A DNA stretch of 64,000 bases, from the NCBI GenBank assembly GCA_036495585.1, contig DASXMP010000127.1:12749-76748 (forward strand), read 5' to 3'. The stretch comes from Streptosporangiaceae bacterium. GTDB lineage: Bacteria; Actinomycetota; Actinomycetes; Streptosporangiales; Streptosporangiaceae. Positions 16,895 through 63,326 of this stretch are shown here, piece after piece. The notes under the pieces were generated by a model. It saw only the letters and a list, made by a program, of their open reading frames with translations. It searched no databases and had not been told where the DNA came from. How positions within the stretch are numbered: position 1 is the stretch's first letter; every line of letters starts with the position of its first letter. Position numbers and translations under genes: made by a program.

Positions 16895-17070
16895 CTTCCT
16901 CCGAGGACAGGTCGCCGCCGCAGGCCAGGCGTCCGGGCTCGTCCTTCGCATGAAGGCATCACCGTTGCGGGACAGCGCCGGGATCTCACCGGCTTCGCTG
17001 CGCTCTGCGCGCACCCGCGACGACTCATGTCGCACGGGTGGCCGCAGCCTACCGCAGTACGGCCGCCGTG
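16895..17070 (-). promoter_or_regulatory. Cobalamin (B12) riboswitch aptamer
   Basis: The minus strand reads GAAGCCGGTGAGATCCCGGCGCTGTCCCGCAACGGTGA, which is the conserved core GGTGxxAxTCC..GCxGxCCCGCAACxGT. This is followed by the B12-box-like GAGCCCGGACGCCTGGCC. Downstream, TCCTCC can pair with the GGAGGA SD of the binding-protein gene. Confidence 0.75.
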
Positions 17071-55725: not shown

Positions 55726-57092
55726 GCGATCGCCCCCAGCGTCGGCTCGGGCTGCCCAGTGCGCTCCGATCCATAAGGCGAAGGAAAAGTGTCGCTGGAG
55801 GACACTTTTCCTTCGGGATCACGAAGACCGGCGATCCTTTCGCGTAGCCGGACCACGTCGCCGATGACCACGACCGCGGGCGGCTGCACACCGGCCGCCG
55901 CGACGTCGTCCGCGGCGGCACCCAGTGTCGACGTCAGGACCTGCTGATCTGGCAGTGTCCCGTTGCTGATGACCGCGACTGGTGTCGCGGCGTCCCGGCC
56001 CCGCTTGATCAGTTCGGCTGACACCTGCGCCACATTCGCCACCGCCATCAGCAGCACCAGCGTGCCAGGGCCGTTCGCCAGTGCCTGCCAGTCCACGGTT
56101 GCCCCGGGATGCGATGGGTCGAGGTGCGCCGACACCACCGCGAAGTCCTGGCTGATGCCCCGATGCGTTACCGGAATGCCCGCGTAAGCAGGCACCGCGA
56201 CCGCGCTGGTGACCCCGGGCACGACCTGGAACGGCACGCCGGCGCGGACACACTCGAGCGCTTCCTCGCCGCCGCGGCCGAAGACGAACGGGTCGCCGCC
56301 CTTGAGGCGCACCACCCGCTGCCCTGCCAGCGCGCGCGCCACGATCAGCTCGTTGATCTGTGCCTGAGTGAGGTTGTGCGCGTGCGGCTGCTTCCCGGCG
56401 TCGATGATCTCCACGTCCGGGTCGAGCTCTGCTAGCAGCGCGCGCGGCGCGAGCTTGTCGGTCACGACCACGTCGGCCTCGGCCAGCAACCGCCGCCCGC
56501 GCACGGTCATCAGCCCTGGGTCGCCCGGTCCGCCGCCCACCAGGACGACACTACCCAGTCGGGCTCGATCGGCGGCCGGCTGACTGCGCAGCGGGCGGAT
56601 CGGCAGGCTGCCCTCGGCCAGCGCGAGCGCCATGGCGGCGCGCAGTCGCTGTGAGCGGCGCGGGTCGCCGCCGGCCGTGACTGCCACCGTGACATCACCG
56701 TGCCTGGTCACGGCCGGCGTCCACGCGGGTGATGCGCCAGCATCGTCCGCGCGTACGCACCAGATGCGGTGGCGTTCAGCGTCGGCCGCCACCCGCGCGT
56801 TGACCGCCGGGTCGTCCGTCGCGGCGTGCGCGAGCCATGCGGCCGACAGGTCGCCGCCGGTGTACCGGCGGCGCAGCACGGTGACGGGCAGCGCGGCCAG
56901 CTCGGCGCACACGTCCGGCGCGATGACGACGACGTTCGCGCCGCAGTCGAGCAAAGTCTCGGACCGGCGCAAGGCGACGCGTCCGCCTCCGACCACGACC
57001 GCACGGCGCCCTGCCATGGACAGCATCAGCGGGTAACGAGCGCCGCCGCGGCTGTCGGCGCTGGCGTTGCTCGGGTCGTCCGGGGCGGTCAT
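55722..57092 (-). CDS. cysG: Fused precorrin-2 dehydrogenase domain plus uroporphyrinogen-III C-methyltransferase (CysG-like siroheme synthase)
   Basis: The N-terminal NAD motif is [12 protein letters not shown]. The SUMT motif is [21 protein letters not shown] 57092 overlaps the stop of the micro-ORF. Confidence 0.85.
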
Positions 57093-57268
57093 GATGCTCG
57101 CCCGACCGCAGGGTAGGTGGGCTGCGGCCGGATCACGGCGATGAAGTGCAGGCTGAAGCCCCTGGCGCAGGCCCGGCACTCCCACTCGCCAGCGTCCGAG
57201 CTTGCGGGACGGAGATTTTCCTCGCCGCAGTACGGGCAGAAGAATGGGATCTGGCGTTCGCCGGTCAC
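57089..57268 (-). CDS. 59-aa zinc-ribbon-like micro-protein (not in the ORF track)
   Basis: [63 protein letters not shown]...CRAC provides four Cys. The GTG overlaps the sirA TGA (GTGA) and its TGA overlaps the cysG ATG (ATGA). Confidence 0.7.
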   Translation of the reverse strand: MTGERQIPFFCPYCGEENLRPASSDAGEWECRACARGFSLHFIAVIRPQPTYPAVGRAS

Positions 57269-58950
57269 GCTGCCGCCTCCGGCCGGGCCGCCTGCGCGAC
57301 CGGCTCAGTCTGGGTCAGCAGCGCAGGGTCGGCGCGCCGCACCCAACTGGCGAACGCCTCGCCGTCTGCCCGGTTGGCCTCGAAGTTGCGGAGCAGCCGT
57401 TCGACGTAATCGGTGAGCCCTGCCGAGGTGACCTTGAGGCCGCGCAGCTTGCGGCCGAAGCCCGGTTCGGTCCCGAGCGAGCCACCCAGGTGCACCTGGA
57501 ACCCTTCCTCGCCGTCGACGATCGAGCCCTTCAGGCCGATGTCGGCGAGCTGGAAGCGGGCGCACGAGTTCGGGCAGCCGTTCACGTTGATCGTGACCGG
57601 GGTGTCGAAGCCAGGCAGCCGGCGGCTCAGTTCGGTGTACAGCTCGCGTGCCCGGCCCTTGGTCTCGACGATTGCCAGCTTGCAGAACTCGATGCCCGTG
57701 CAGGCCATCGTCCCGCGCCGGAACACGTTCGGACTGGCCTGAAGGTCAATCGCGGCAAGTTCGGCCGTGAGGCCCGGCAGGGCTCGTTCCCCTATATCGA
57801 GAAGGAGAAGCTTCTGCTCGATGGTGGTGCGTACCCGGCCCGAGCCGTACGCCTCTGCCAGGTCCGCGACCTGCCACAACTGCGTCCCGGAGGTGCGGCC
57901 GGTGTGCGGGGCGACGCCCAGGTACCAGCGGCCGTCGCGCTGGCGATGGGCGCCGAGGTGATCGCGGGAGCCGGCGGCTGGCGCGGGCGGCGGCCGACCG
58001 TCGGACAGGGCGCCAGCCAGGTACTCGGTCTGCAGGACCTCGCGGAAGCGCTCGGTGCCCCAGTCGGCGACCAGGAACTTGAGCCGGGCGCGGCTGCGCA
58101 GCCTGCGGTAGCCGTAGTCGCGGAACAGGCGTGCTACGCCGGTCCAGACCTCCGGCACCTGGTCGGCCCGGACGAACACGCCGAGGCGCTGCGCCAGCAT
58201 TGGGTTGGTGGAGAGGCCGCCGCCGACCCACAAGTCGTAACCGGGCTCGCCGCCTGGGCCGACGACGCCGACGAAGGACACGTCGTTGACCTCGTGGGCG
58301 GTGCACTGGCTGGCGCAACCAGAGATCGCGGTCTTGAACTTGCGCGGCAGGTTGGTCAGGTCGGGGCTGGTCGTCGCGATCAGGTCGGTCGCGTGGATGG
58401 CCGCCGATGCGTCGATGACCTCGGCCGCGTCGAGGCCGGCCACTGGGCAGCCGAGGATGTTGCGCGGCACGTCGCCGCAGGCTTCCTGGCTGGACAGGCC
58501 CACCTCCTCCAGCCGGGCCCAGATCGCCGGGACGTCCTCGATCCGGATCCAGTGGAACTGGACGTTCTGCCGGTCGGTGATGTCCGCCAGGTCGCGGCCG
58601 TACTCTTTCGCCACTTCGGCAACTGCTCGGAGCTGGGGCAGGTTCAGCTGACCGCCCGGGATGCGGACCCGCATCATGAAGTAGGGGTCCTCGATCTCCG
58701 CGTCCTCCAGGGCACCGGTTCTGCCGCCGCCGATGCCGGGCTTGCGCTGGGTGTACAGGCCCCACCAGCGGAATCGGCCGCGAAGGTCGCTCGGGTCGAT
58801 GGACTCGAAACCGAGGTGGGCATACCGGTTCAGGATGCGCTCGCGGACGTGCATCCCGTCGTCGTCCTTCTTGAATCGCTCGGCCGGGTTGAGCGGCTCA
58901 TGGTGGCCGAGGGCCCACTGGCCCTGGCCGCGAAGCTGCTGGGATGGCAT
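57265..58950 (-). CDS. sirA: Ferredoxin-dependent sulfite (nitrite/sulfite) reductase hemoprotein
   Basis: The siroheme/4Fe-4S Cys cluster is CTGIEFCKLA...NVNGCPNSCA. The fold is duplicated NIR_SIR. ATG 58950 follows GAAGGA. Confidence 0.9.
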   Translation of the reverse strand: MPSQQLRGQGQWALGHHEPLNPAERFKKDDDGMHVRERILNRYAHLGFESIDPSDLRGRFRWWGLYTQRKPGIGGGRTGALEDAEIEDPYFMMRVRIPGGQLNLPQLRAVAEVAKEYGRDLADITDRQNVQFHWIRIEDVPAIWARLEEVGLSSQEACGDVPRNILGCPVAGLDAAEVIDASAAIHATDLIATTSPDLTNLPRKFKTAISGCASQCTAHEVNDVSFVGVVGPGGEPGYDLWVGGGLSTNPMLAQRLGVFVRADQVPEVWTGVARLFRDYGYRRLRSRARLKFLVADWGTERFREVLQTEYLAGALSDGRPPPAPAAGSRDHLGAHRQRDGRWYLGVAPHTGRTSGTQLWQVADLAEAYGSGRVRTTIEQKLLLLDIGERALPGLTAELAAIDLQASPNVFRRGTMACTGIEFCKLAIVETKGRARELYTELSRRLPGFDTPVTINVNGCPNSCARFQLADIGLKGSIVDGEEGFQVHLGGSLGTEPGFGRKLRGLKVTSAGLTDYVERLLRNFEANRADGEAFASWVRRADPALLTQTEPVAQAARPEAAA

Positions 58951-59400
58951 TGCTGGTCCTTCTGCTGGAAGCGCTGCGGCTATGGCGGCGTGCACAAGAC
59001 GGCAGCCTGCGCACGAGGCCGCTGCCCGGCTGATCCGGGCGGGCTAGGGAGTGCGAGGAAGCTGACTCAGCAGGAGGTACGACAGATGGCGCTGGAAACA
59101 CGCAGCAGATCGATGTGACGCCGGCAGACAAGCCACGGGCCGCGGCAGGCGGTCGGGCGGGTCACTACGGCCTCCGGAGGCTAGGTCGCTGCGCTCGCGC
59201 GCCGCGAGGGACTCGGCGGTGCAGGTCGCGCCACGCTGCGCTGGTCACGGTGCCGACGGGCCAACCTCTGGAAGGCGCCGATAGCACTTCTAAGACGGTA
59301 ACATCCGCGACCTGGGATCGCGCAACAGCAAAACCGGTCAGTAGCGAAAGCCTAACCTGCCCTCGGTGGTGCCCGGCCCGTCCGTCCTGCCCGGGCGTGG

Positions 59401-59480
59401 GTACTGGTCCGGTCCGCCCGGTGCTGGCCTGGTCCGCCTGGTGCTGGCCCGGCCGCCCGGTGCTGGCCCGGCCCGCCGGT
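59401..59480. repeat. About 3.5 copies of a 20-bp tandem repeat (GGTCCGCCYGGTGCTGGCCY)
   Basis: The units are at 59411-59430, 59431-59450 and 59451-59469 (one base shorter). Degenerate copies flank them. Confidence 0.85.
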
Positions 59481-59630
59481 AGGGTTCAGCCCGCCAGAGG
59501 GTCCAGCCCGAACGATGGGGTCCGGCACCCGTCGATACGCGTTGGTCGGCCAGTCGATGTAAACGCCTCGTCAACGCGCCTGCCGACCGGCTTCGTCCTC
59601 ATTGCGCTGAGCCGATCGGCAGGCCTTGTG

Positions 59631-59816
59631 CTATCCGGTTAGGTGGTGTAGTTGCTGCCAGACTTCGATGACCGCGTAGCCAATCCCGGCGATCATCGCG
59701 GTTGCGATCACGATGATCATCAGCTTCAGTATCTTGCGCCAGAACGCCACGACCGCGATCGCGATGAGCACTACTACGATGCGGATGGCTTCGGCATTCT
59801 GAGCCGCGGCCTGCAT
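59631..59816 (-). CDS. 61-aa two-TM hydrophobic micro-protein
   Basis: AAAGGAGGTG lies 7 nt upstream of the ATG. The product is MQAAAQNAEAIRIVVVLIAIAVVAFWRKILKLMIIVIATAMIAGIGYAVIEVWQQLHHLTG. A 12-bp imperfect hairpin lies downstream at 59581-59625. Confidence 0.7.
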   Translation of the reverse strand: MQAAAQNAEAIRIVVVLIAIAVVAFWRKILKLMIIVIATAMIAGIGYAVIEVWQQLHHLTG

Positions 59817-60398
59817 GTTTCAACACCTCCTTTCGGCGACAGCCGGCCGGAGGGCCAAGCGAGGCGGCAACTTCCACCTGTTTCACACGGGTATCTTGCA
59901 TTCACCCGCTAGGCAGGTAGCATGATCCCATCACTTGGCCCACCTTTGGTTGGTTCGGTTCGGGTGACTGGCACGGTCGATGGCGTCAACATCGGCCGTG
60001 CTTTTGTGTCAGCTGTGTTTCGGCGTCTTCGCATGCCCCCTTTCCTGCCGCCGCCGACCTGCCCGCAGCGTGGCCAGGTGGTGCAGGCGGCGCACATCAG
60101 CCCCTTTCACGGTCTCATAGCTTTTGGCATTTGCCAATGGCGTTCGCTTCTGTAACCGGCCATTGTGGTATGGCGCGGACCGCTGGCCCCGTCCCGGCCG
60201 CCGTCATCTGGCTGTGCTGGCGCTCAGAAGGTCGTCGCCTTGTCTCAATGAATGACCAGGTCACAGGGTCAGACGAAGGGGCTGAAGATTTTCTCAGGGC
60301 GCGTGTGTCGGCCTAGGTGCACAGCCGCCATTCAGGTGTATCGTCATCCTGTGGCAAATGCCAATGGCGATGTTGGACGCGCGCCGATTGCTCGGCGG

Positions 60399-61283
60399 GT
60401 GCCGGGTCAGCGTCCGGCCGCCGAGGTGGCGGAGGACGCCAATCCGACCGTGCGGCAGCGGGAGCTTGCCCACCGGCTGCGGGAGTTGCGCCTCGCCAGC
60501 GGCCTGACCGTGGAGCAGGTCGGTGCCGAGCTGCTGTGCTCTGCCACCAAGATCAGCCGGATCGAAACGGCGGCGCGCCGCGCCAGCTTGCGGGATGTCC
60601 GCGACCTTTGCCTGGTCTATGGGGTTGCCGACCCTGGTGAACTGATGGAGCTAGCCACCAGGGCGCGGGAGCGCGGCTGGTGGTCCCGCTTCGACGATCT
60701 CGCCCTCGAGCCCTTCATCGGGCTAGAGCAGGAAGCGACCGTCATCACCTCGTACACGATGTACTGGGTTCCTGCGCTGTTTCAGACCGCGGACTATGCG
60801 ACGGCCATCATTCGGGGGATTGGCCGAAAAATGGATCCCCGTGTCCTCAACGACCGGGTAGAGGCTAGGATTCTGCGCCAGAAGCGGCTTGAAGGTGTGA
60901 GACCACCGCGATACCGGGCGTTGACCGACGAAGCGGTCTTCCGGCGACCAGTTGGCGGTCCCGCAGTAATGAAGGCTCAGCTCGACAAGATCCTGACGTG
61001 GACAGCTCTCGGCCGAGGTTCGATTCAGGTGATCCCGTTCAGCGCCGGTGCGCATGCGAGTTCCGACACGAATTTTGATCTGCTGGAATTCGGGGATGCT
61101 GCACTGCAAAGTCCTGTGGTGTATGTAGAGAGCCTGATGGGCGCTTTTTACTATGAGCGCCCCGCCGAGGTCGAGCGATACCGCGAGTCGATCGAGTACC
61201 TGCGGGAAGCGGCGCTCAGCACCCAGGACTCGCTCGCGCTCATCGCTGGGATCCGAGATCAGCTCTCAGCCGCTTCTAGCTGA
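60399..61283 (+). CDS. XRE-family HTH regulator with a DUF5753-type C-terminal domain (WhiJ-like)
   Basis: The HTH is LRELRLASGLTVEQVGAELLCSATKISRIETAARR. The C-terminal domain contains WWSRFDD, VPALFQTADYA and IQVIPF. The start is uncertain among in-frame GTGs at 60336, 60351 and 60399. Confidence 0.8.
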   Translation: MPGQRPAAEVAEDANPTVRQRELAHRLRELRLASGLTVEQVGAELLCSATKISRIETAARRASLRDVRDLCLVYGVADPGELMELATRARERGWWSRFDDLALEPFIGLEQEATVITSYTMYWVPALFQTADYATAIIRGIGRKMDPRVLNDRVEARILRQKRLEGVRPPRYRALTDEAVFRRPVGGPAVMKAQLDKILTWTALGRGSIQVIPFSAGAHASSDTNFDLLEFGDAALQSPVVYVESLMGAFYYERPAEVERYRESIEYLREAALSTQDSLALIAGIRDQLSAASS

Positions 61284-61322
61284 GGTCCATTAATCCCAGT
61301 TAGTACCTTAAGAGGAGACTAA

Positions 61323-61532
61323 ATGCTGCAGATACCGCAGAGCCTTGGAGACCTCTCGTGGCGCGTCGCACGCAAGTGCAATGGCGGGCAGTGTGTTCGC
61401 GTGGCGGTGCACGGAGACGAGATACTCGTCGGTTCCACGAAGCAGGGCGGTGGCCCGGTGCTGGCCTATAGCCGCGAGGAGTGGGCGACGTTCGTCGAGG
61501 GCATCCGCCAGGGCGATTTCGACGACATCTGA
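61323..61532 (+). CDS. DUF397-domain small protein (BldB-like partner of XRE/WhiJ regulators)
   Basis: GAGGAG lies upstream of the ATG. The motif is WRVARKCNGGQCVRVAV. It is 69 aa and starts 39 nt after the XRE gene. Confidence 0.85.
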   Translation: MLQIPQSLGDLSWRVARKCNGGQCVRVAVHGDEILVGSTKQGGGPVLAYSREEWATFVEGIRQGDFDDI

Positions 61533-61580
61533 GGACGCCGTCCTCCTCCCCGCAGCGGAAGGTACTCCGGTCGGCTTAGC

Positions 61581-61619
61581 GCCCGGGGACATGCTGGCAG
61601 TATGCCCGCGTCCCCGGGC
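61581..61619. terminator. 10-bp stem hairpin between convergent DUF397 and AAA+ genes
   Basis: gcccggggac, a 19-nt loop, then gtccccgggc. Confidence 0.45.
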
Positions 61620-61627
61620 CCGGCCAG

Positions 61628-62809
61628 TCACCGCCAGGGCTCGGCCCCAATCGTGGCCGATGGCCCGGTCAGCGCCGAGCCGGTCGGTCCGGCGCCGACG
61701 TCCGCGGCGTCCAGGCGCATCAGGTCATCCTTGCCCCAGCGGCGGCCGAGGTCGCTGGCCAGGCGGAACGCATGCTTGAGCCTGGCTTGCTCCAGTTCGT
61801 TGCGCACGCTCCGGGCGTTGGCGAAATGCGGGTGCCCCATCTGAGCCGCGATGCGGTCACGGAATGCGGCTTCGGCGTCCGATGACAAGTAGTAATTCGT
61901 ATCCCGAAGCATGAGCTGCCCGATAGCCGAGAGCTCGTCAAGCTCGTACGCCGCGAAATCGAGATGGTGAGCGATTCGCGACCGCATGCCCGGGTTGTAA
62001 TCGAAGAACTCGTCCATCCTGTCCTTGTAGCCAGCCAGGATGACCACCAGGTTGCCGCGGTCCTTCTCCATCACCTGCAGCAATATGTCGATGGCTTCCT
62101 GGCCGTAGTCCTTAGAGTCGGATGCCCGGTACAGGTAATAGGCCTCGTCGATAAAGAGGACGCCGCCCATCGCGCGGTCCAGAATCCGCTTGGTCTTGGG
62201 TGCGGTATGCCCGACGTACTGGCCGACCAGGTCGTCGCGCATCGCATGAATGAGCTTGTCCTCCTCGATGTAACCCAGCCGGTGCAGCAGCTCGGCCATG
62301 CGCAGCGCCATCGTCGTTTTGCCAGTGCCTGGCGGGCCAGTGAAGCACATGTGCAGGGTTGGTCGCGGCGTGCTCATGCCGAATTTGCGCCTGGCCTGGT
62401 CGACAAGGAGCAGAGCCGCGATTTCCTCGACCTTCCTTTTGACCGGAACGAGCCCGATCAGGTCCCGGTCGAGTGCGCCAAGGATGTCGTCGATGGCGGT
62501 GGCGTTCCGCTCCGTGGCGAAGTCAATGGTCGCACTCATCGGCAAGATCTGTGTCTGACTGGCCTTCTTCACCCGGCGTCGGCCACGGTGCCGCTGGTCG
62601 CTCGTGTGCGTGGAGGTCTTGCGCGCCTTCGTCCGGCTACCCGATATATTCCGATTGCCGGGTTCGCTCTTGTCGGTGCTGCGGGAGCTTGCCATCGCGA
62701 GCGCAGACAGGCCGATGAGGACCGCGACGGCCGCGGCGGCCGCGACGATCAGGCCTAGTGCGTGGCTCATCCGGCTCGCCCCCATTCGCGTCGCCTGTTG
62801 CACTGTCAT
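61628..62809 (-). CDS. CbbX/SpoVK/EccA-type AAA+ ATPase with an N-terminal TM helix and a highly basic linker
   Basis: The core of ~300 aa carries Walker A GPPGTGKTT, Walker B VLFIDEAY, and NLVVILAGY, MRSRI and FANARSVRNELE. In-frame upstream lie ALGLIVAAAAAVAVLIGLSALAMA and RTKARKTSTHTSDQRHRGRRRVKK. Candidate starts are ATG 62809, 62785 and 62770. The internal ATG 62539 has no SD. Confidence 0.8.
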   Translation of the reverse strand: MTVQQATRMGASRMSHALGLIVAAAAAVAVLIGLSALAMASSRSTDKSEPGNRNISGSRTKARKTSTHTSDQRHRGRRRVKKASQTQILPMSATIDFATERNATAIDDILGALDRDLIGLVPVKRKVEEIAALLLVDQARRKFGMSTPRPTLHMCFTGPPGTGKTTMALRMAELLHRLGYIEEDKLIHAMRDDLVGQYVGHTAPKTKRILDRAMGGVLFIDEAYYLYRASDSKDYGQEAIDILLQVMEKDRGNLVVILAGYKDRMDEFFDYNPGMRSRIAHHLDFAAYELDELSAIGQLMLRDTNYYLSSDAEAAFRDRIAAQMGHPHFANARSVRNELEQARLKHAFRLASDLGRRWGKDDLMRLDAADVGAGPTGSALTGPSATIGAEPWR

Positions 62810-63131
62810 CCGAGGATGACGTGGCCCTCTTGCATCCGCAAGACGCTGCCCGCTCGCATTTGGAGCGCGTTGTATCTGGATGCGTCGTATCAGGATGACA
62901 GAGCGGCGCCAGGCCCCTGCGGGCGCGTAGCCAGGAACTTCTCGATATCCGGCTCCGCCTGCGGAGGCGGTGGCACGCTGCGGACTGGGGGTCGGCGCCG
63001 GCCGCCGCTTCCGCTGGGTGCCCCGCGGCCTTCGCTGGCCGCCCCGCCGTCGCGGTCCTCGACCGTGCGCGCCGCGCCGGGAGGCGGGGCCCGGTTGTCG
63101 GGATCGCCCGGCCCGGATTAGCCTGGCGCCC

Positions 63132-63326
63132 GTGCGACTGACGGACTTCTGGGCCAAGATGCGGAAGCAGTTTGGCGATGTCTACGCCGAGAGCGTGGCC
63201 AAGGATCAGGTGCTCGCTGCCCTGGGCGGCCGGACCGTGGAGCAGGCCCTGGCTGACGGCGAGGACGCCAAGATCGTCTGGCGAGCCGTGTGCGAGACAT
63301 TCCGCGTCCCAGAGCGGATGCGGTGA
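63132..63326 (+). CDS. DUF3046-family protein (the conserved small gene normally found upstream of actinobacterial recA)
   Basis: VRLTDFWAKMRKQFGDVYAESVAKDQVLAALGGRTVEQALADGEDAKIVWRAVCETFRVPERMR aligns by eye with the mycobacterial recA-upstream protein. GTG start. Confidence 0.8.
   Translation: MRLTDFWAKMRKQFGDVYAESVAKDQVLAALGGRTVEQALADGEDAKIVWRAVCETFRVPERMR

Follow-up and report, generated by a model that had tools for sequence, protein, structure and literature searches.

A low-G+C block beside sirA in a Streptosporangiaceae genome is probably a composite of a WhiJ/BldB-type cassette with a micro-protein output and a separately acquired, membrane-anchored CbbX-like ATPase gene

Do adjacent genes in a stretch of unusually low G+C content form one functional system, or have they come together through separate events? 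This question is raised by a locus in a Streptosporangiaceae bacterium (assembly GCA_036495585.1), of which we analyzed 64,000 nucleotides (contig DASXMP010000127.1, positions 12,749 to 76,748; hereafter the window, in whose own numbering positions are given). Between the sulfite reductase gene sirA and a DUF3046 gene, a block at 59580-62830 encodes a 61-residue micro-protein with two transmembrane (TM) segments, an XRE-DUF5753 regulator with a DUF397 partner, and an AAA+ ATPase that resembles CbbX and is tethered to the membrane. An initial annotation had read these four genes, all of which we recovered with their stated domains from open reading frame (ORF) lists and domain searches, as a single horizontally acquired conflict or stress module, comprising a sensor-regulator, a membrane effector driven by ATP and a small toxin or holin-like peptide of the membrane. 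Our analysis indicates instead that the block is probably a composite of two independent acquisitions at a variable spot between sirA and DUF3046-recA in a Streptosporangiaceae/Trebonia-like genome. Unit A (about 59.58-61.55 kb), which holds the micro-protein, regulator and DUF397 genes (hereafter the trio), appears from its sequence to be a new variant of the WhiJ/BldB cassette, with the micro-protein as its output, palindromic candidate operators and an undescribed RNA-like element, while Unit B (61.53-63.12 kb) carries the ATPase gene.

The distribution of the four genes among relatives, whose loci we cite by L numbers, bears most directly on this question. The trio occurred at the same chromosomal site without the ATPase gene in L169, L170 and L178/L179, where the order was sirA, PNP_UDP_1, methyltransferase, micro-protein (- strand), XRE (+), DUF397 (+), DUF3046, AAA_33 kinase and recA, and where DUF397 directly abutted DUF3046. 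Identity to the window at these loci was 73-77% for XRE, 70-75% for DUF397 and 49-54% for the micro-protein. L175 likewise had XRE and DUF397 followed by DUF3046 with no ATPase gene, on a contig that begins too close to these genes to show the micro-protein. When L169 and L170 were compared with the window by blastn, a 1.59-kb segment carrying the ATPase gene was found to replace 222 bp of the DUF397-DUF3046 spacer of L169.

We also scanned one genome per species for relatives of the ATPase and obtained 80 loci (57-75% identical) from Streptosporangiaceae, Trebonia and related metagenome-assembled genomes (MAGs). None of these encoded a relative of XRE, DUF397, the micro-protein, sirA or DUF3046 within 10 kb on either side (tblastn, E ≤ 1e-3), and two rounds of ORF clustering across the 80 loci yielded no universal partner gene, only syntenic groups of at most 10 loci. 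All four genes stood together only in L003/L167, a close relative whose sirA is 90-91% and whose four block genes are 77-88% identical to those of the window, a pattern that fits vertical inheritance from a recent ancestor; beyond that relative, the co-occurrence that the initial annotation had proposed to look for is essentially absent. Because the trio is found without the ATPase, the ATPase without the trio, and all four only in a close relative, the ATPase gene is a later, separate addition in this lineage only. One further locus, L168, a 2.2-kb Logan contig that may be chimeric and to which we give little weight, had the micro-protein and XRE genes without DUF397 and beside a different neighbor.

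The site at which these genes sit is itself variable. We searched 80 metagenome contigs with sirA relatives (60-91% identical) for neighboring genes and found DUF3046 and sirA as divergent neighbors, 336-705 bp apart with nothing between them, in L096, L097, L098, L100, L106, L109, L110 and L111. Elsewhere the two genes were separated by a methyltransferase gene (L087 and L153, 1.3-1.4 kb), a gene for a ~410-aa protein (L090, 2.3 kb), a membrane protein gene (L107, 2.6 kb) or other ORFs (L095 and L118, 1.2-2.0 kb), and in the window, L167, L169 and L178 they were separated by the trio and further genes (3.9-5.2 kb). Since distance and content fall into these three classes, the sirA-DUF3046 interval is a variable insertion hot spot, and the earlier view that the block is an insertion interrupting core synteny, here the conserved sirA/DUF3046 adjacency, agrees with this comparison, which shows the insertion to be lineage-specific. 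Downstream of DUF3046, the relatives continue with an AAA_33 kinase gene, recA, recX and an RNase Y gene (order in L167, L169, L175 and L178).

The local dip in G+C content that had been estimated from hand counts also proved real. The block has 63.5% G+C, the lowest of any 3.25-kb stretch in the window (whole window, 69.6%; other 3.25-kb stretches, mean 69.9%, standard deviation 1.6, minimum 65.5), and the two hand-counted samples recompute to 57.5% (61861-61980) and 58.3% (60781-60900), although the ~73% given for a sirA sample does not describe sirA overall, which has 70.0%. Inside the block, G+C peaks of 71-73% occur at 60.4-60.7 and 61.45-61.9 kb. The low G+C content of the trio is a stable property and not a sign of recent arrival, because the trio has the same 62-63% in five diverged lineages whose flanks have 67.5-70%. 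Neither did we find the marks of a mobile genomic island: integrase and transposase genes are absent from the ORFs, neither insertion is bordered by direct repeats or by inverted repeats at its ends, and no tRNA gene lies near the block, the only one in the window being at 17.8 kb.

Table 1. Features of the sirA-DUF3046 interval, in window coordinates
Feature	Position	Strand	Remarks
sirA (sulfite reductase)	57265..58995	-	NIR_SIR and NIR_SIR_ferr domains; left flank, core gene
20-nt G+C-rich tandem repeat array, 4-5.8 copies	59371..59480		Tandem Repeats Finder; left border of the block
Hairpin straight after micro-protein stop codon	59578..59624	-	Inverted repeat, 15-nt arms, 93% complementary
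Two-TM micro-protein TM61, 61 aa	59631..59816	-	ORF; divergent from regulator gene
Promoter-like element, TTGCAT-16 nt-TAGCAT	59896..59923	+	Five aligned lineages
~80-nt small-RNA-like element	59929..60008	+	Terminator scan, folding, covariance model
Putative operator O2, TTGGCATTTGCCAA	60124..60137		Perfect 6-N2-6 palindrome, beside invariant GGTCTCAT
Putative -10 of regulator promoter, TATCGT	60339..60344	+	TANNNT kept in six lineages
Putative operator O1, GTGGCAAATGCCAA	60351..60364		Over predicted transcription start of regulator gene
XRE (HTH_31) + DUF5753 regulator, WhiJ-like	60351..61283	+	DUF5753 8.6e-53, HTH_31 1.3e-15
DUF397 protein (BldB-like), 69 aa	61323..61532	+	PF04149 1.1e-10; 39 nt 3' of regulator gene
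ATPase-carrying segment	61527..63117		blastn against L169 and L170
AAA+ ATPase, 385 aa	61628..62785	-	N-terminal TM helix, ~60-aa basic Ser/Thr-rich linker, CbbX-like core
DUF3046 gene	63132..63326	+	PF11248 3.9e-27; right flank, core gene

If the ATPase gene arrived on its own, what kind of protein does it encode? The combination of an N-terminal hydrophobic helix with a CbbX-like core supports its earlier description as a membrane-tethered relative of CbbX and SpoVK, and such a helix was present in 114 of the 118 best ATPase homologues. The core matched the CbbX structure (PDB 3SYK/3SYL) with 336 bits over 260 residues, and in this alignment the pore-loop GQY(V/I)GHT, Walker A and B and both arginine motifs were conserved. 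The translation also contains three signatures of the SpoVK/CbbX/EccA clade, namely ILAGY (the GY of sensor 1), NPGMRSR (an Asn four residues before the first Arg finger) and ANARSVRN (the sensor-2 Arg). Members of this clade are dedicated chaperones whose variable N-termini set location or client (PMC11513918), and the N-terminus presumably does so here too, although it is a single TM helix rather than the small beta/alpha domain or TPR repeats of SpoVK and EccA (PDB 9LUR), and neither sporulation nor type VII secretion genes are linked to the gene. Because the basic residues come after the helix, the positive-inside rule implies that the ATPase ring should face the cytoplasm.

The ATPase belongs to a large, uncharacterized family that is present in multiple copies, with three MAGs contributing two loci each (at least two copies). 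Each paralog group holds its own conserved chromosomal position, so that the family looks like an old expansion and not like mobile cargo. In one group (L007, L008, L009, L012, L016, L022, L023, L033 and L037), the gene lies directly 3' of a ~857-aa ORF that we take, from reading its sequence, to be a leucyl-tRNA synthetase, and nearby ORFs are presumably LexA-like and NrdR-like. The relatives average 3.2 ± 2.1 points of G+C below their flanks (73 loci), and the low G+C content of the ATPase gene is partly a family trait. The window's copy lies 7.8 points below its flanks, with a G+C content at third codon positions (GC3) of 0.83 (family mean, 0.89). Since it is unusually AT-rich for the family, and since none of the sampled paralogs exceeds 68% identity to it along the full length, the sequences suggest a relocated or transferred old paralog rather than a recent duplication. 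By analogy with its clade, the protein is most likely a membrane-tethered remodeler of a specific membrane-proximal client: Unit B would encode a stand-alone, hexameric AAA+ machine, one of several paralogs per genome, acting on a dedicated client other than Rubisco and having no functional tie to Unit A. In the spacer between the ATPase and DUF3046 genes (62800-62904), we also noted a 12-nt inverted repeat, GCACTGTCATCC / GGATGACAGAGC, around two tandem copies of GCGTCGTATCAGGAT, which may be a regulatory site for either gene.

Two other interpretations of the ATPase were considered. That it forms one conflict module with its neighbors is suggested by the contiguity of the four genes within the low-GC block and by the membrane location shared by the ATPase and the micro-protein, together with weak PADLOC matches of the ATPase to IetA. 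In addition, both lineages that have the ATPase gene, the window's and that of L003/L167, have kept it next to the trio; this speaks against a composite origin, and a lineage-specific functional link is still formally conceivable. Nevertheless, the four lineages with the trio site but no ATPase (L175 being seen as XRE and DUF397 only) and the 80 ATPase loci without a trio already largely refute a single module, the contexts of the ATPase paralogs look like housekeeping regions, and a defense function finds little footing in the matches obtained. Searches against PADLOC-DB 2.0 returned only weak, generic AAA+ and HTH matches (IetA, 33 bits; capH/HTH, 14-21 bits) and no IetS-like partner, which leaves the block outside the known anti-phage systems, as the initial annotation had anticipated; the IetA/IteA likeness is that of a generic AAA+ protein (NCBIfam IteA, 27.6 bits, cutoff 510). 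We therefore consider the single module very unlikely. The other interpretation, that the ATPase is a genuine CbbX and thus a red-type Rubisco activase, draws on the closeness of the core to Rhodobacter CbbX and on public annotation, since the identical gene call P0001 carries the JGI name 'probable Rubisco expression protein CbbX'. Here, though, the score against TIGR02880 (409 bits) stays under the cutoff of 459.25, the TM anchor and basic linker are foreign to soluble CbbX (PDB 3SYK/3SYL, 3ZUH), and there are several paralogs per genome. The gene for CbbX invariably shares an operon with form IC Rubisco genes (PMC5437159), whereas the neighbors here are DUF397 and DUF3046. A search for Rubisco large-subunit motifs across the window and all fetched loci, including those of the ATPase relatives, gave no convincing match, only a degenerate 6-residue pattern in frames without RbcL-like context. 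A true CbbX has next to no chance of being the right identification, and the public name for this family is a mislabel.

With the ATPase set apart as a separate addition, the trio can be considered in its own right. Few regulator families have expanded as much in actinomycetes as the XRE/DUF397 (WhiJ/BldB) pairs, which are poorly understood, and to our knowledge iosA is the sole output gene directly tied to such a pair. In the window, an HTH_31-DUF5753 regulator gene is followed immediately, on the same strand, by a DUF397 gene, which supports reading the pair as a WhiJ/BldB-type module, in line with the earlier description of the regulator as WhiJ-like. The same domains and gene order are found in the 15 XRE/DUF397 pairs of Streptomyces coelicolor, including Scr1/Scr2, SCO1979/78 and WhiJ (SCO4543/42) (PMC10364602, PMC6262351). 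The best NCBIfam model for the regulator is the Sco1979 family, but because its score of 221 bits lies under the equivalog cutoff of 350, the regulator is a relative of that family and not an orthologue. We counted 2,611 relatives of the regulator at E ≤ 1e-30, and DUF397 partners 70-77% identical to that of the window stand beside XRE in L167, L169, L170, L172 and L173/L174, L175 and L178. The regulator's start is uncertain, with in-frame GTG candidates at 60351, 60426 and 60450. The last is unlikely, because the codon is ATC in L168, and the ATG of the ORF at 60252 is also unlikely, because O1 and the promoter would then fall inside the ORF.

The closest characterized counterpart of Unit A is the iosA-whiJ9-bldB9 locus of S. 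venezuelae. There, WhiJ9 binds repeats in the iosA-whiJ9 spacer, activating the divergent iosA and repressing itself, and BldB, a DUF397 protein, does not bind DNA and hetero-oligomerizes with paralogs (PMC10294661). As in that locus and in whiJ/bldB/abaA clusters, an XRE-HTH and DUF5753 gene is followed here by a same-strand DUF397 gene (PMC10294661). A divergent small output gene across a spacer of ~0.5 kb, and repeated spacer motifs of which one is placed to repress the regulator promoter, are also common to iosA-whiJ9-bldB9 and to Unit A, where binding would follow by analogy. The loci differ in their outputs, a 61-aa two-TM micro-protein here against the 15-kDa cytoplasmic IosA, with AbaA different again. 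They differ too in the conserved ~80-nt RNA-like element of our spacer, for which we found no description at whiJ loci, and in their hosts, a Streptosporangiaceae/Trebonia-like MAG, in which Unit A is known from sequence alone, against Streptomyces for whiJ9.

The spacer between the micro-protein and regulator genes had been described as ~580 nt long and non-coding; the length holds (~535-610 nt), but the spacer is not empty, since the small-RNA-like element lies inside it. Alignment of five lineages showed near-invariant islands amid freely varying sequence, and both putative operators are such islands. They correspond to the two palindromic copies already reported, which we found to read TGGCA(T/A)(T/A)TGCCAATGGCG over 18 nt, at 60125-60142 and 60352-60369. 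Their core is TTGGCA-N2-TGCCAA. In the window, the 13-nt core occurs at these two sites alone, against a chance expectation of 0.03 matches, and among 171 loci the motif was found only in the eight with this XRE subfamily. Between 6 and 10 nt 5' of O1, a TANNNT hexamer appears as TATCGT, TAGCAT, TATCTT or TACGAT across six lineages (from the alignment and the L172 sequence). Judged by this conservation, O1 would overlie the start of the regulator's own transcript, in the manner of the WhiJ9 site. Beside O2, on the - strand at 60138-60150, an invariant ATGAGACC(G/T)TGA spells M-R-P-stop in five lineages (window/L167-L170/L172 positions), with a synonymous change of CCG to CCT in L172 and TGG in place of the stop in L170; it may be a chance occurrence, part of a protein-binding site or a tiny upstream ORF.

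Is the divergent micro-protein gene real? It has a strong Shine-Dalgarno (SD) sequence, AAAGGAGGTG, 7 nt 5' of its ATG, and encodes two hydrophobic segments with RKILK between them, as befits a small hydrophobic membrane peptide. Homologues of 60-61 aa occupy the same position in L167 (80% identical), L168 (67%), L170 (54%), L178 (51%) and L169 (49%), and a profile search of 1.84 billion representative proteins returned a family of 61 clusters, nearly all of 57-65 aa, sharing the motifs FWR, (L/I)G.GA and Q..HH. Given that length and position are kept across lineages with 49-80% identity, and that the 61 clusters share motifs, we conclude from the sequences that the gene is real. A MAG entered as Streptosporangiaceae bacterium has an annotated copy with the identical sequence. 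The micro-protein was matched by no Pfam, NCBIfam or PADLOC model, and PHROGs gave a single chance-level match (phrog_17726, E = 0.013). The hairpin straight after its stop codon is a possible terminator that lacks a U-run. Neither of the coding readings that we tried for the conserved leader held: a + strand small ORF (MIPSLGPP...) loses its frame through a 1-nt indel that separates the window from L168, and a 27-codon ORF on the - strand has 57 codons in L168 and runs into the SD sequence, so we treated the leader as non-coding. The TTGGCA of O2 was likewise rejected as a promoter element for the micro-protein, the spacing being wrong for any -10.

The small-RNA-like element begins with an invariant 5' GATCCCCATCACT, followed by a variable stem-loop and by an invariant 13-bp terminator hairpin with TTTTGTG after it (59970-60008), and a terminator scan gave a match at 59970-60002. 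Thermodynamics and conservation point to this structure: the minimum free energy of the 80 nt is -36.9 kcal/mol (z = -4.2), and none of 200 shuffles was as good. A covariance model built from seven copies retrieved full-length copies at 82-100 bits in seven lineages (11 loci with duplicate contigs), and its best score elsewhere in 2.4 Mb was 22.8 bits. Where the upstream sequence was long enough, the element accompanied this XRE subfamily at all loci but L171. Searching 59400-60600 against Rfam at E ≤ 10 gave only two chance-level matches and no family for the element. The element is preceded by a promoter-like sequence whose hexamers and spacer length are kept in five aligned lineages, with the spacer sequence itself varying; its match falls under the threshold of a sigma-70 consensus scan, and the counterpart that we read in L172 is TTGCAT-16-TACCAT. 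The element lies 113 nt 5' of the micro-protein ATG, on the opposite strand.

These observations allow a mechanism to be proposed for Unit A, with its details drawn from analogy and from conservation. The XRE-DUF5753 protein would bind the two TTGGCA-N2-TGCCAA operators, as at iosA-whiJ9-bldB9; binding at O1, over the regulator's own start, would repress its own promoter, and the regulator would also control the divergent micro-protein gene. The DUF397 protein, by the same analogy, would not bind DNA and would modulate the regulator through protein-protein contacts. The ~80-nt RNA, made from its own conserved promoter and ending at its own terminator in the spacer, would probably add a second, post-transcriptional layer and, should the mRNA of the micro-protein start upstream of it, would lie antisense to the leader of that mRNA. 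We suggest, tentatively and as a possibility that we hold in some doubt, that the cassette is a three-layer switch, composed of a DNA-binding regulator, a DUF397 modulator and a cis-encoded small RNA, for a membrane-active micro-protein, with the micro-protein and the RNA forming a captured type I toxin-antitoxin (TA)-like core.

Several results weigh against this mechanism for Unit A. The motifs here are palindromes, whereas the WhiJ9 site has three direct repeats. The micro-protein promoter was not located, as the spacer alignment contains no conserved TANNNT between the RNA promoter and the SD sequence. Covariation in the RNA-like element is almost nil (a single compensatory pair out of 26, from just five aligned sequences), and pairing in trans between the RNA and the micro-protein initiation region did not exceed that of shuffles (z -1.9 to +1.2, six lineages). 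Finally, L172-L174 keep the RNA-like element, operators, XRE and DUF397 with only a 5' remnant of the micro-protein gene, ~40 nt long with an early TAG at codon 3, so that the output gene is dispensable. This cassette (L172 5660-7927, with the same sequence in L173 and L174) sits at another chromosomal site, and its XRE is 72% and its DUF397 70% identical to those of the window, with the operators and the RNA-like element (83.7 bits) intact. We dropped the idea that a RES toxin replaces the micro-protein in L172, because only the remnant aligned and the RES-domain gene is simply the next one on that strand.

Three alternative accounts of Unit A were weighed against this background. Type I TA loci such as tisB/istR-1 and hok/sok combine a gene for a small hydrophobic peptide, whose leader is long and conserved, with a small RNA gene encoded within the leader region on the other strand. 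A pair of this kind, in which a membrane-damaging peptide is countered by an antisense RNA and gated by the XRE/DUF397 cassette, would account for a peptide that is small, very hydrophobic and led by a strong SD sequence, for an opposite-strand RNA gene with a conserved promoter and terminator just upstream of it, and for a leader that is better conserved than the proteins; and because the stretch from the RNA gene to the SD sequence yielded no conserved promoter, the micro-protein mRNA may start further upstream and overlap the RNA. That overlap hinges on a putative mRNA start, however, and toxicity is hypothetical as well. With two TM segments and 61 residues, the peptide stands near the top of the size range of type I toxins, the locus, coupled to a pair of protein regulators, holds one copy at a fixed chromosomal site where type I loci are typically multi-copy, and neither the trans complementarity nor the persistence of the RNA where the peptide gene is lost favors the pairing, which we regard as doubtful, though worth entertaining. 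The loss in L172-L174 also fits the element being the 5' leader of the XRE-DUF397 operon, its terminator acting as an attenuator and no separate RNA being made. The element has the orientation of the XRE gene, lies about 340-420 nt upstream of it and is missing from L171 alone among the loci of this XRE subfamily with sufficient upstream sequence. Yet a separate putative -10 is conserved just 5' of O1, the sequence from the terminator to O1 is poorly conserved apart from O2, and no alternative anti-terminator fold is evident; attenuation seems to us rather unlikely on this evidence. A third account, a type II TA system with DUF397 as toxin and XRE as antitoxin, goes back to a 2009 family prediction by Makarova et al. 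(PMC2701414, as relayed in PMC10364602). It would suit the two-gene operon with its candidate autoregulatory operator and the matches of both proteins to actinophage families (phrog_9908, 3e-71, and phrog_10815, 9.5e-8). Against it, overexpression of 14 DUF397 proteins in S. coelicolor caused no toxicity and the pairs are pleiotropic regulators (PMC10364602, PMC6262351), and BldB acts via regulators (PMC10294661). We judge a type II system to be quite improbable, and retain the WhiJ/BldB-type regulatory cassette as the framework for Unit A.

Some further observations concern the surroundings of the block. The start given by the longest sirA ORF is probably too far upstream. About 190-250 nt 5' of sirA (window 58996-59244) can be aligned with L169 and L170 and have no Rfam match; in the window, L091 and L092 their opposite strand yields a spurious conserved ORF start (MTPADKP..GRAGH), and this region is probably a leader or promoter of sirA that has been conserved. 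The 20-nt repeat array sits between it and the micro-protein gene. On the other side of sirA, before the siroheme-synthase gene, a 59-aa, Cys-rich, zinc-ribbon-like ORF (CPYC...CRAC; 57089-57268, - strand) is called at the same place in L003, L167, L169, L170 and L178, and for this reason is a conserved micro-protein of the sulfite-reduction operon. Beyond DUF3046, recA encodes 735-737 aa with a LAGLIDADG_2 intein in L167 (3576-5789), L175 (2809-5019) and L178 (9621-11828) and an intein-free 370 aa in L169 (8380-9492), so that close relatives are polymorphic for the presence of the intein; L095, L107 and L118 likewise have long RecA ORFs. Far from the block, a cobalamin riboswitch (RF00174, 48.9 bits; 16906-17033, - strand) is the sole Rfam family above its gathering score in the window.

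Separating the two units removes a tempting false lead, in that the cassette does not include the membrane-anchored CbbX-like ATPase. What is left is a compact test case for XRE/DUF397 regulation outside Streptomyces, conserved across seven lineages, which offers a defined candidate operator motif, a defined predicted output from an unannotated family of ~60-aa two-TM proteins, and an undescribed small-RNA-like element. If the three-layer switch proposed here is true, it would link two families that have been treated separately and would give XRE/DUF397 pairs a concrete effector.

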